From a virus (Duplodnaviria; Caudoviricetes): a DNA stretch of 64,000 nt. Below the pieces are notes generated by a model. That model ran no database searches and had not been told where the DNA came from. It saw only the letters and a list, made by a program, of their open reading frames with translations. The translations under genes were made by a program, and so were the position numbers. Positions 18,136-60,800 of the stretch are shown here, one piece after another (the first letter of the stretch is position 1; each line of letters opens with the position of its first letter). Where the stretch lies: positions 1 to 64,000 of IMG/VR virus record IMGVR_UViG_3300013947_000019; one strand, given 5' to 3'.

Positions 18136-18151
18136 TATAATATATATCTCA
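18136..18151 (-). promoter_or_regulatory. Early-like promoter motif
   Basis: TGAGATATATATTATA followed directly by the hairpin AGGTGAAGCAG...CTGCTTCACCT. Confidence 0.7.
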
Positions 18152-44526: not shown

Positions 44527-44549
44527 ATAAATTACTCCCTTCTTTATTT

Positions 44550-45090
44550 TTATAGTACGATTGCTCCAGGTCGCCCTGGAGCATAACTTAACCTATGATT
44601 AACGAGTGAAGTAGCAAAAGACAGAGGTGTATGTCATGGTACCTTATGCAGTGAAAGGAGATATCTACAATGAGCGATGTAGATTTATCATTGGAGGTCG
44701 GTTAAGTTTTGGTATCGTACTGAGGCAAGCCTCACCGGAGATAGAGATGAAAAATTATTCGCACATCCATTCCAGGTATTCCCTGATTTGGATGATATAA
44801 AAATGGATATTATCTGAAGAACCATCACTTCAGTAATACCCTTGGATGAGGTGTCCAATGATGATAAATATCAGATACTTGGCAGTTATAGATATAAGAG
44901 TTATGGGAAGTGGTGGAGTCTCTTATACCTGAGGTGGAATATCTGATATCATAAGTAATCCAGTATCCTTGTTAGTACTCAACAGATGGTTAGGATCAAC
45001 CGATTACTGGGAAGGAGGACTTAATATAGGTGAAATCAAATGTACTTTGTGGAGGTATACAACATGATTCGGTGGTGAATACCAAGCCCT
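44550..45090 (-). ncRNA. Putative ~540-nt structured RNA with multiple anti-Shine-Dalgarno motifs
   Basis: 650-nt gap with no ORF of 60 aa or more. Promoter AACA-ATTT-TATG at 45089-45102. More than 10 hairpins, with minus-strand GCGA and CUUG tetraloops. About 10 CCUCC/CACCUC/CUCCUUUC motifs. Confidence 0.6.
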
Positions 45091-45174
45091 CATAAAATTG
45101 TTAGTATATGTATAAAAATAAAATAATGAGAAAGAATTTGCCCGGGAGAGTAGTATCATCTCCCGGGCTTATCT

Positions 45175-56165: not shown

Positions 56166-57014
56166 CTACATAAACATCCGGATGATTGGTAATATAAATC
56201 TAGTATAATTATATACTGGATTAATGATATCCATATCTTTCTCGCCTATCTCTAATAGGTTATATTCAAATCCAGCTATTTCATATACAGTTCGATAAAT
56301 ATTTTCTCCATTCAATTCTTTATAATAATAGTGAGGAAGATTTTTAGCTTTATAATCTCTCACAAATTGAATTAAGAACTGACGAAGTTCATCTCTCTGA
56401 TCCATAGATAAATACTTGAATACTTGTAGGAAGAATTGAATCATTCCTTTCTGATGATCTGGATCTTCTACTACCTCATCACGAATGCCTTTAATAGTAA
56501 TAGATTTATTTCTTTTATCATAATAGAATTCGATCTTATCGATATTCAGATATCCCATATAAGTATGCTTGGGTCTGAATTCAAAGGGACCGAATTTCGT
56601 ATATTTTAACTTTCTACCAATAATGAACACTGCATCATTTTTGATAGCAAGTACATCTTTGTCTTGAATATGATTTATTCGGAATAACTTTTCTTTAGCA
56701 GATTGAATACCATCAGATATTGCTTTATATATAGTATTCTTTTTGGACTGCTTTTCCCGACGAATCATTTTACCAATCGCTTCTTCTCGCGCTTGCTTAT
56801 TCAATCCCTCTAGCATAGTTAAAATTTTAGGATCAATAAGTTTAGATGCTCGTAAGGCAGATGTATTAGCAGAACGAATATCATACTCATAGATATGATC
56901 CACTACATACTGTACATCTGCAGTATAGTTGACTTTCTTATACAACTCAGAATAAGTTCTTTTGAGCTCTATAAAACCTTCAGAATTGCGAACCATATCT
57001 TCCATGAATATCAT
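56166..57014 (-). CDS. Small family-B DNA polymerase palm-like protein
   Basis: IYEYDIRSAN resembles motif A (DxxS) and LAIKNDAVF resembles motif C (xxDTDS); followed by IKGI. Confidence 0.45.
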   Translation of the reverse strand: MIFMEDMVRNSEGFIELKRTYSELYKKVNYTADVQYVVDHIYEYDIRSANTSALRASKLIDPKILTMLEGLNKQAREEAIGKMIRREKQSKKNTIYKAISDGIQSAKEKLFRINHIQDKDVLAIKNDAVFIIGRKLKYTKFGPFEFRPKHTYMGYLNIDKIEFYYDKRNKSITIKGIRDEVVEDPDHQKGMIQFFLQVFKYLSMDQRDELRQFLIQFVRDYKAKNLPHYYYKELNGENIYRTVYEIAGFEYNLLEIGEKDMDIINPVYNYTRFILPIIRMFM

Positions 57015-57045
57015 ACACCTCCTTACTATGAAAAATCATTTTATG

Positions 57046-57081
57046 AAAGAGAGGGGAGGGGACATCATCCCCTCCCTTTTT
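57046..57081 (-). terminator. Intrinsic terminator
   Basis: GGGAGGGGA-tgatg-TCCCCTCCC then CTCTCTTTC on the minus strand. Confidence 0.65.
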
Positions 57082-57082
57082 A

Positions 57083-57440
57083 CTCTCCCGATCAACCTAA
57101 TCATTTCCGGTAATGGCTATAATCAGACAGGGGCCCGAAATTCACTCTATGGAAGCGAGACCTCATTACACATCCGACCGTCACACCAAGGTTATTAGTT
57201 TTGGCGTGCACTCCTATGCACACTTTCGCTAATACACCTAAATGCTAATAGGTAATAGGAGTTACCTGAATAGCAAAGTAGCCTTACCGATAGTATCGAT
57301 TAAGCAGATCTATATAATAGACCTGGACGAGCCGATCTCGACCAGATCACAACAAGAGAAACCGAAACGGGTCCACGAATTGGAATCACCAGAGACTACC
57401 TGTTTATCAGGATTGGGTGAATATGCACCGTTTCGATAAC
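57083..57440 (-). ncRNA. Putative ~360-nt highly structured RNA with complementary (kissing) loops
   Basis: Gap with no credible CDS, GC-richer than its flanks. Nested long-range helices with minus-strand G.U pairs; loops CUCCUA and UAGGAG. Confidence 0.6.
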
Positions 57441-57465
57441 TCATGTTGCCTGGAATGATATGAAC

Positions 57466-58605
57466 TTACTTGGACTCCTCAGTGGTCTTCAGAGCCTTTG
57501 CCGCAGCAATGAAAGCCTTGGAGAAAGTATCCTCATAGTTCATATAGCCGATCATGGTAGTCATGATCTTGTTATACTCCTTGGAACCGATAGTCACATC
57601 GCACAGAACGGCACTGGTGTGAGCATAGATCATGGGGATGAAGTCAAAGTTCTTCTTCTTGGAGAAGTACTTCACAAACTTCTTCACCTTCATCTTGGGA
57701 GCCTTGCCCTTCTTATCATAACCGTTCTTCACGGTGGGCAGCTTCATATCAGTACCCATAGCAGTATTCAGGATCTCGGTGAAGGTATCATAAGCAGCCA
57801 CTGCCACCTTGTTCTTCTCCTTCAGAGAACCGCAGACCTTCTTCATCTGCTTCTTCTTCAGACCCTCAGTGATAGCGAAGTTGTCATTGGTATAAGCATC
57901 CAGCAGGTTCTTCAGCATGATGTGACGCTCATCCTTACGGATATGCAGCTCGCCTTCCTGCTGGGCAATATTGAACAGAGCAGCCTGACGCAGCTCGATA
58001 GCGAAGAAACCAAACAGGCGCTTCTTCAGCTTCATGCCCTTGCCGGAAACACGGACCTTATCATTAGCACGAATGAAGTCGGCAACACGACGAGCAACCT
58101 TCTTGCTCTTACCCTTACCGAACAGCTTCTTCAGAACCTTGGTATCAGTCACGATCTCGATACCGAAAGCATCAAACAGAGCAGCCAGATACTTGGTCAG
58201 GAACTTATTCTTCTTCTTAGTGATCTCATCAGTGGGATCATCCAGGACGATCACGATGATGTTAGGACCGTGCTTCTTGATGTTCTTGATCTCACGCTTG
58301 GTCAGCTTACGATCGGAGCTGATGATATTCACCAGCTGAGCCATCTCGATGCACAGGCCGTTGTTCTCCATGGAAGGAACCATCAGAGCCTTGCAGGCAC
58401 TCTTGATGACCTTCTTCTCCTTCAGGCTGCCATCCAGAACACCATTGATCTCGTCCTCATCGGGCAGAATGTTCAGCTTGGTCAGACTGACCTGCAGTTC
58501 AGCATCATCGATACCCTTGGTCTTACCTGCGGTAAATGCCGCAATATTCGTATCATACTTTGCAAAGATAGTCTTTGCCTTGGATGCGGTAGTTACGATA
58601 ATCAT
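57466..58605 (-). CDS. Very basic hypothetical protein, 379 aa, likely highly expressed
   Basis: AAAGGAG RBS; Lys-rich; strong AAG/CTG/ATC codon bias. Confidence 0.8.
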   Translation of the reverse strand: MIIVTTASKAKTIFAKYDTNIAAFTAGKTKGIDDAELQVSLTKLNILPDEDEINGVLDGSLKEKKVIKSACKALMVPSMENNGLCIEMAQLVNIISSDRKLTKREIKNIKKHGPNIIVIVLDDPTDEITKKKNKFLTKYLAALFDAFGIEIVTDTKVLKKLFGKGKSKKVARRVADFIRANDKVRVSGKGMKLKKRLFGFFAIELRQAALFNIAQQEGELHIRKDERHIMLKNLLDAYTNDNFAITEGLKKKQMKKVCGSLKEKNKVAVAAYDTFTEILNTAMGTDMKLPTVKNGYDKKGKAPKMKVKKFVKYFSKKKNFDFIPMIYAHTSAVLCDVTIGSKEYNKIMTTMIGYMNYEDTFSKAFIAAAKALKTTEESK

Positions 58606-60737: not shown

Positions 60738-60759
60738 ACTCCTTATCGATTTCTATACA

Positions 60760-60775
60760 TATAGTATATATCTCA
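60760..60775 (-). promoter_or_regulatory. Early-like promoter motif
   Basis: TGAGATATATACTATA upstream of the kinase-like gene. Confidence 0.7.
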
Positions 60776-60800
60776 AAAAGTTTTATTCAAAACAGGTAAG

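Follow-up and report, generated by a model that had tools for sequence, protein, structure and literature searches.

The window analysed in this study (the whole stretch of 64,000 nucleotides) is the start of a 259,863-bp IMG/VR virus record. The 282-aa product of one of its genes has tblastn matches in Bacillus phages AR9 and PBS1, in Staphylococcus jumbo phages, and in Yersinia phiR1-37, and by these matches the source is identified as an AR9/PBS1-like jumbo phage of about 260 kb from pig gut. Upstream of this gene lies a gene for a 379-aa protein, also on the minus strand, and the two are separated by a gap of 451 nt, which is occupied by the RNA described here. The positions of the genes, of the parts of the RNA, and of related features elsewhere are collected in Table 1.

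Table 1. Features of the RNA locus and related features. Positions are those of the window unless a locus handle is given; RNA sequences are those of the minus strand.
Feature	Position	Strand	Sequence or remark
Upstream gene	57466..58605	-	379 aa; Lys-rich basic protein, pI 9.7, 16% Lys
Whole non-coding RNA cassette	57045..57465	-	From stop codon of 379-aa gene to terminator tail, ~420 nt
5' domain	57349..57449	-	P1 enclosing P2 and three small hairpins (consensus fold)
P1	57449-57440 with 57358-57349	-	GCAACA.GAG with CUC.UGUUGU (consensus fold)
P2	57435-57428 with 57370-57363	-	CGAAACGG with CCGUUUCG; inside P1
Small hairpins in P1	57410-57406/57390-57386 (first)	-	UCACC/GGUGA (first); CCUG/CAGG; CCA/UGG (consensus fold)
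P3 hairpin	57320..57348	-	GAUCUGG.CGAG-AUCGG-CUCG.CCAGGUC (consensus fold)
AU-rich single-stranded linker	57311..57319	-	UAUUAUAUA; directly 5' of closing helix
P4, 5' strand of long core-closing helix	57297..57310	-	GAUC.GCUUAAUCG; CUUAAUC = 57304-57298
P5, 5' strand	57279..57289	-	CGGUAAGGCUA (CGGUAA-GGCUA); partner UAGCC-A-UUACCG 57108-57119
P6 arm with kissing loop 1	57243..57275	-	UGCUA 57275-57271/UAGCA 57247-57243; AGGUAA 57267-57262/UUACCU 57255-57250
Kissing loop 1	57256..57261	-	CUCCUA; exact complement of 57211-57216
P7 arm with kissing loop 2	57189..57239	-	AGGU.UAUUAG, 7x7 internal loop, GUGCA-UAGGAG-UGCAC, CUAAUA.ACCU
P7 outer helix	57239-57229 with 57198-57189	-	AGGU 57239-57236, bulged G 57235, UAUUAG 57234-57229; CUAAUA 57198-57193, ACCU 57192-57189
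P7 apical stem	57221-57217 with 57210-57206	-	GUGCA with UGCAC
Kissing loop 2	57211..57216	-	UAGGAG; exact complement of loop 1
Unpaired joiner	57178..57187	-	GGUGUGACGG; 3' of P7 arm; invariant in group A
P8 subdomain	57121..57177	-	GUCGGAUG...CCCUGUCUGAU and inner hairpins; contains CCCUGUCU, common to group C
P4, 3' strand	57090..57103	-	UGAUUAGGU.GAUC; GAUUAGG = 57102-57096
Intrinsic terminator	57045..57089	-	GGGAGGGGA-UGAUG-UCCCCUCCC 57076-57054, extended by GGGAGAG/CUCUCUU; U-rich tail
Downstream gene	56166..57014	-	282 aa; homologue of AR9 g239; own strong Shine-Dalgarno
Nearest upstream early-type promoter motif	60755..60780	-	TTTTTGAGATATATACTATA; ~60770, before 690-aa gene
Other early-motif copy	~62946	-	Just past strong terminator 62992-62960
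Early-type motif copies (examples)	1393, 4469, 16573, 18145, 46624, 60770, 62947	-	Motif scan
Group I intron	L062:1019-1377	-	Genome ~135.5-135.9 kb; Rfam
Group I intron	L063:1221-1547	+	Genome ~208.0-208.3 kb; Rfam
Small ORFs in slot, sister lineages	L020:3728-4141, L023:3724-4131, L006:4217-4585, L042:2162-2428		88-137 aa

The 379-aa protein is modelled with a pLDDT of 90 and a pTM of 0.87. Foldseek gave no match for it at E ≤ 0.001, the best Z in VIA-align was 5.0, and no Pfam or PHROG family was matched; the model may represent a new fold. The 282-aa protein (model pLDDT 92) has a family-B DNA-polymerase-like (PolB-like) fold, with herpes simplex virus helicase-primase chain C and DNA polymerase alpha as its best structure matches (E 7e-5 to 1e-3). 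The AR9 homologue g239 is annotated as hypothetical, and the gene is widespread among gut jumbo phages as part of their core.

No conserved ORF is found in the RNA cassette when the homologues of group A (see below) are compared, and the indels among these copies are mostly not multiples of three; therefore, the region is not protein-coding. The minimum free energy (MFE) of the minus strand is -136.6 kcal/mol (z = -4.81), and that of the plus strand is -106.6 kcal/mol (z = -3.21). A preliminary description of the locus had assigned the RNA to the minus strand on account of its G-U pairs, and the difference in z agrees with this assignment, because better folding of the minus strand is expected if G-U pairs matter. 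The terminator that it had placed 3' of the RNA was recovered, hairpin and tail, by a terminator scan. Its suggestion of a structural RNA, possibly a new one, is supported by the lack of an Rfam match and by compensatory changes in the homologues. The region is almost certainly a real, non-coding and strand-specific structured RNA. No exact repeat of it longer than 14 nt occurs elsewhere in the phage genome.

All the helices proposed earlier were located by direct reading of the minus strand, and the two 6-nt loops are indeed exact complements. One proposed helix stands only in part: UUCUCUUG (57360-57353) and CGGGAGAG (57090-57083) are both present, but their pairing is doubtful and probably not preferred. 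In the consensus fold it is replaced by the pairing of CUC.UGUUGU with GCAACA.GAG in P1 and by that of GGGAGAG with CUCUCUU 3' of the terminator stem. The covariation described below shows a fold in which the 5' domain (P1-P3) is followed by a core; the 13-bp P4 and P5 close this core, and the arms P6 and P7 and the subdomain P8 radiate from it.

Relatives were gathered through homologues of the 379-aa protein, on contigs from pig-gut and human-gut assemblies. Wherever such a homologue is at least about 59% identical, it is always followed by a non-coding gap of 450-570 nt with a terminator before a gene of 279-282 aa. These gaps fall into at least four groups that are mutually unalignable by BLAST: group A (the window, L005, L043, L044, and L046), group B (L013, L019, L024, L026, and others), group C (L034-L037), and group D (L028, L053, and L055). 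About 50 more loci, found in IMG/VR and JGI metagenomes by way of the downstream protein, added only group B copies. A blastn search of the RNA against 50,697 GenBank phage records gave no match, and an exact 16-mer scan of IMG/VR returned the known copies and two chance matches in coding DNA, and nothing else.

The group-A alignment consists of the window and the four further copies found via the flanking protein, which are 79-92% identical. In this alignment 95% of the base-pair cells hold standard pairs, compared with about 41% when the partners are slid by 1-3 columns, and 12 pairs are changed on both sides, of which five belong to the arm below loop 1 and one to the stem below loop 2. In the 5' domain, two-sided changes are seen in one small hairpin (CACC/GGUG to CGCU/AGCG) and also in the CCA/UGG hairpin. 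Five pairs of P3 vary one-sidedly through G-U, which argues that P3 is RNA and not merely promoter DNA. In P4, 13 of 13 pairs are retained in all five sequences with one G-U/G-C change, and P5 has one two-sided change. As to the two arms, 5 of the 13 pairs of P6 are changed two-sidedly under a constant loop, and P7 contains the compensatory changes GUGCA/UGCAC to GUCCA/UGGAC and AGGU/ACCU to GGGU/ACCC. The helices of P8 are mostly invariant and thus weakly supported, and the terminator has an invariant stem and a variable loop.

Like group A, the other groups fold much more stably than shuffled sequences. In group B, 96.8% of the cells are paired, compared with about 40% in the slid control, and 12 two-sided changes are present. 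The MFE z values are -7.8 (L026) and -10.8 (L013) in group B, -9.4 in group C, and -9.7 in group D. All four groups exhibit a common layout. It begins with one or two hairpin domains at the 5' end, followed by a short UAUA-rich linker and a long closing helix; then come a first arm, a longer second arm with internal loops, further hairpins, the closing strand, and a GC-rich terminator hairpin at the 3' end. The linker of groups B, C, and D is the equivalent of UAUUAUAUA in group A; the element may serve for processing or as a promoter. Equivalents of the closing helix are found in group B (GUCAUGUUCC/GGAACAUGAC), group C, and group D, and in groups A-C the second arm has about twice the length of the first. 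Between groups A and C, homology is visible in the sequence. In P1 they have GCAAC...CCCUUGUUGUG in common, with the shared form GCAAC...C(C/U)CUUGUUGUG, and they also share CCCUGUCU and the joiner 3' of the second arm (GGUGUGACGG in group A, GGUGUGAUGG in group C); the joiner serves as an anchor by which the two hairpins of one group can be equated in position with those of the other. Group B shows further variation. Its 5' hairpin domain is modular, about 75 nt of the apical part being absent from L013 and L015; L024 and L026 have an additional hairpin before the first kissing arm; and the core tolerates large insertions and deletions.

The complementarity of the two loops, in which the preliminary description had seen a possible basis for folding or multimerisation, is retained in the homologues: the loops are the same within a group, and between groups they differ and are nevertheless complementary. 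Against random loops of matching sizes, the chance of the group-A pair (CUCCUA/UAGGAG, 6 paired bases) is 1.5e-4. The corresponding figures are 8e-4 in group B (AUCUGCA/AUGCAGAA, with UCUGCA/UGCAGA as 6 paired bases), 1e-3 in group C (UCUUCCAC/GUGGAA, with UUCCAC/GUGGAA as 6 paired bases, or 8 with the stem opened), and 7.5e-3 in group D (GCUGCA/AUGCAGAA, where CUGCA/UGCAG gives a weaker pairing of 5 bases). The joint chance for groups A, B, and C is of the order of 1e-10, uncorrected for the choice of loops. The occurrence of different but complementary loops in every group supports a real kissing interaction, and the six-base loops of P6 and P7 very probably pair with each other.

It may be argued that the RNA is structured but its loops do not pair, their complementarity being a coincidence. 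The loops are constant within each group though the stems beneath them vary, so that covariation of the loops is confined to comparisons between groups, whose alignment is difficult; the equivalence of the group B hairpins is drawn from architecture and not from alignment. Moreover, when the 260-kb genome was scanned crudely, two nearby hairpins with 6 complementary loop bases turned up at about 13 loci, three of which are in non-coding DNA. Loop complementarity in one sequence alone is thus only moderately unusual, and the case for kissing rests on its recurrence across groups. A coincidence would have to place 6, 6, 6, and 5 complementary bases of different sequence in the same neighbouring pair of hairpins in four groups at the joint chance given above, and is considered quite improbable. 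An anti-Shine-Dalgarno role, with CUCCU masking and UAGGAG mimicking a ribosome-binding site, was also considered and rejected, as the loops of groups B-D are unrelated.

With respect to transcription, the phage has an early-type motif, TTTGAxATATATA(T/C)TATA, of which about 20 exact copies plus variants are present, nearly all on the minus strand. The motif is close to the early consensus of AR9, AAATATATATTAT-(6N)-G (PMC5312081). Several copies precede hairpins instead of genes (e.g. that at 18145). The motif is absent from the gap, the AR9-type late motif AACA-N6-T[AG] is not conserved in the gaps, and no promoter of the RNA's own was found in the gap. Two candidates were rejected: a sigma-70-like site (TCGAGA-16-TATTAT, 57341-57314) is a weak match not above chance, and the internal TATTATATAGAT shows no enrichment as an upstream motif. 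Between the early motif near 60770 and the RNA's own terminator, the terminator scan gave no convincing terminator, and none between the 379-aa gene and the RNA. With an early motif upstream, no intervening terminator, and no motif in the gaps, the RNA is probably the 3' end of an early transcript starting near 60770. Such an early operon would run from this promoter through the 690-aa gene and the 379-aa gene into the RNA, and would end at the RNA's own intrinsic terminator (57076-57045). Among public sequencing runs, no RNA run containing the sequence was found, and contigs from two possible RNA runs and two DNA runs yielded only fragments of relatives.

As no promoter of its own was found, the RNA could be simply a 3' UTR and terminator module, which shields the early mRNA against degradation by 3' exonucleases, insulates it from the gene that follows, and lacks any function in trans. 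The continuous stretch from the 379-aa gene to a terminator at the end of the RNA is in keeping with this explanation. For this purpose, however, a plain terminator hairpin would suffice, and a multi-domain structure of about 400-570 nt with a conserved kissing pair and invariant loops is unexpected for a simple stabiliser. So is the wholesale exchange of the cassette between 99%-identical phages described below, and some relatives do without the RNA. This explanation is therefore regarded as unlikely.

Comparison with known families gave no assignment. With Rfam 15 nothing was found at the gathering score in the 64-kb window, and nothing relevant at E up to 10 in 56900-57600; seven loci of the related groups gave no match at E up to 1. 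The models of tRNA, tmRNA, RNase P, 6S, and riboswitches do not match the RNA, and ARAGORN found no tRNA or tmRNA in the 64-kb window. The absence of tRNA, tmRNA, and group I hallmarks noted earlier is thereby upheld, ARAGORN giving 0 hits and the Intron_gpI model giving no match to E 10, and the Rfam search proposed at the same time found no family at the gathering score or at E up to 10.

The group I model also bears on a possible intron origin, in which a group I-like intron, degenerate or free-standing, or a mobile ribozyme of another kind would have inserted between genes. The phage does contain several group I introns, and the RNA is similar to them in size and has sharp borders and a history of exchange between genomes. 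As a control, the same model (RF00028) finds two introns of the phage at 45 and 27 bits, below the gathering score (E 2.8e-9 and 5e-4), and the missing match at the RNA is therefore meaningful. In addition, no gene is interrupted: the RNA is flanked by a stop codon on one side and a ribosome-binding site on the other. It also ends in a terminator of its own, which would not be compatible with an intron. An intron origin is thus extremely improbable.

The cassette is exchanged between close relatives. In L026 (group B) and L028 (group D), the 2.6 kb upstream and the 1 kb downstream agree at 99% identity and the 384-aa upstream protein is identical, whereas the gap of about 500 nt between these flanks is unalignable (42%). 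One breakpoint lies six bases past the stop codon and the other about 27 bases ahead of the following start codon, and the borders of the cassette in the window (57045 and 57465) coincide with them. Within group A, L046 and L044 have an identical 378-aa protein and flanks that are 96-99% identical, and their RNAs are 83% identical. Near-identical flanks around unalignable RNAs mark the locus, as judged from these genome comparisons, as a hot spot of exchange or rapid change, that is, an exchangeable and fast-evolving cassette. Wholesale replacement between otherwise identical phages is a pattern usual for arms-race genes.

At the same slot, a gap is missing or a small ORF is present in AR9, Machias, L022, L041, and about 40 further lineages. 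More distant relatives have an ORF of 122-137 aa, an ORF of 88 aa (L042), or no gap, and in AR9 and Machias a guanylate kinase gene is found there. A PHROG search with the three 122-137-aa ORFs (L020, L023, and L006) found no family. The slot looks like a general hot spot for accessory genes.

These distributions bear on two explanations that tie the RNA to its neighbours. In the first, the RNA and the basic 379-aa protein form a ribonucleoprotein. The two are probably co-transcribed, the protein has the Lys content and pI that would suit such a role, and in the clade the RNA always stands immediately 3' of the protein's gene. On the other hand, the identical 384-aa proteins are paired with unalignable RNAs of group B or D, the protein is likewise encoded by lineages that lack the RNA at the slot, and no nucleic-acid-binding fold was recognised in it by the structure searches. 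In the second, the RNA acts in cis as a leader, either riboswitch or attenuator, and regulates the PolB-like gene via the terminator. A long structured RNA followed by a terminator and a gene with a strong Shine-Dalgarno would be the arrangement expected, and GGGAGAG has two possible partners (UUCUCUUG or CUCUCUU), with all the bases involved being invariant. Yet the PolB-like gene is kept in many phages without any leader, unrelated RNAs substitute before the same gene, and no Rfam aptamer family is matched; furthermore, the core terminator stem has no conserved competitor, and the CUCCU loop, a potential Shine-Dalgarno mask, is not retained in groups B-D. Both flanking genes exist without the RNA in relatives, which, together with the identical upstream proteins beside unalignable RNAs, argues against a sequence-specific protein-RNA pair as well as against a leader function. 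The ribonucleoprotein is accordingly a distinctly unlikely explanation, and the leader a very improbable one.

The variable slot, the absence of the RNA from distant relatives, and its swaps between near-identical phages point instead to an accessory RNA acting in trans. It would act at the interface of phage and host or of phage and phage, for example as a scaffold, cage, or decoy, and would not be a regulator of the neighbouring genes. To this explanation as a whole, including the trans-acting accessory role, a probability of roughly 0.6 is given, the function being read entirely from context. The group-A RNA is a member of an undescribed family in a clade of AR9/PBS1-like jumbo phages of the pig and human gut. 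Among AR9-like, uracil-DNA jumbo phages it would be the first structured RNA gene on record, and it lends itself to study by cryo-EM.

A catalogue of about 10,000 candidate phage RNAs, with a mean length of about 67 nt, mentions nothing similar (PMC10690425). The RNA is outside any described family, and is nearest in kind to ROOL and GOLLD, and in logic to the pRNA of phi29.

The phi29 pRNA (RF00044) has two mutually complementary loops per molecule, which pair between molecules into a ring, and the pRNAs of related phages have a common fold with little sequence in common, their loop complementarity being kept in different letters. Mutually complementary loops that are retained across relatives with changed sequences are likewise found here in groups A-D. 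The differences are considerable, however. The pRNA model does not match the RNA, and the pRNA, at about 120-174 nt, is two to four times smaller than the RNA of about 420 nt. It lies beside the packaging motor at the end of a small genome, whereas the present RNA is in the early or replication block of a 260-kb jumbo phage, with a PolB-like protein and RNase H as neighbours and not with a phi29-like packaging function.

The lysine riboswitch provides a comparison for pairing within one molecule, as its L2 and L3 loops form an intramolecular clamp. The present RNA resembles it by analogy in having neighbouring junction arms, about six loop-loop pairs, and a longer arm with internal loops that may act as hinges. 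In contrast to a riboswitch, it has no match to a riboswitch model, its groups have no conserved core resembling a ligand pocket in common, and the downstream gene is independent of it.

ROOL (RF03087) and GOLLD (RF01998) are large ornate RNAs of phages and prophages, found in gut, rumen, and Firmicutes, whose function is unknown. The present RNA is similarly a large ornate phage RNA with probable kissing loops. It is not matched by the covariance models of the two families and is shorter (about 420-570 nt). ROOL and GOLLD usually lie near phage tRNA islands, whereas the present RNA has no tRNA near it in the 64-kb window and occupies one syntenic slot between the same two protein genes, with exchange of the cassette. 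Covariation had first revealed the loop pairings of ROOL and GOLLD, which were taken for tertiary contacts; they were later found to join separate molecules in cages made only of RNA (PMC12286853). These cages were shown only recently, and the present locus adds an unrelated family of large phage RNAs.

The kissing helix of P6 and P7 would be the main long-range contact in the architecture of the RNA. It is thus a candidate architectural or assembly contact in which the sequence shifts between lineages while the complementarity stays. Whether it clamps the two arms within one molecule or joins molecules hand in hand is given roughly even odds. For the intramolecular clamp, hinges like those of the lysine riboswitch could be provided by the internal loops of the second arm. 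Helix lengths, roughly counted, suggest that intramolecular closure in groups B and C needs sharp bends, which slightly favours pairing between molecules, although both are still treated as even.

If pairing is between molecules, it might lead to closed dimers, rings, or cages, and the loop pairs might then be codes of assembly specificity that keep apart the RNAs of co-infecting and recombining jumbo phages. This extension is tentative and has clearly less than even odds; if the between-molecule reading is true, the RNA would form a quaternary assembly of a new, RNA-only kind, whose specificity system is natural and can be exchanged. The cassette types constitute natural variants for mix-and-match experiments.

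Two other long gaps were observed. In the window, positions 44527-45174 are an ORF-free stretch of 648 nt, one of 33 gaps of at least 250 nt in the genome. In two IMG/VR contigs of 110 and 266 kb (L077, positions 860-1567, and L078), an apparent gap of 708 nt precedes the PolB-like gene; it looks like AT-rich coding sequence broken by table-11 stops and not like RNA, and may reflect a recoded stop codon or a pseudogene.
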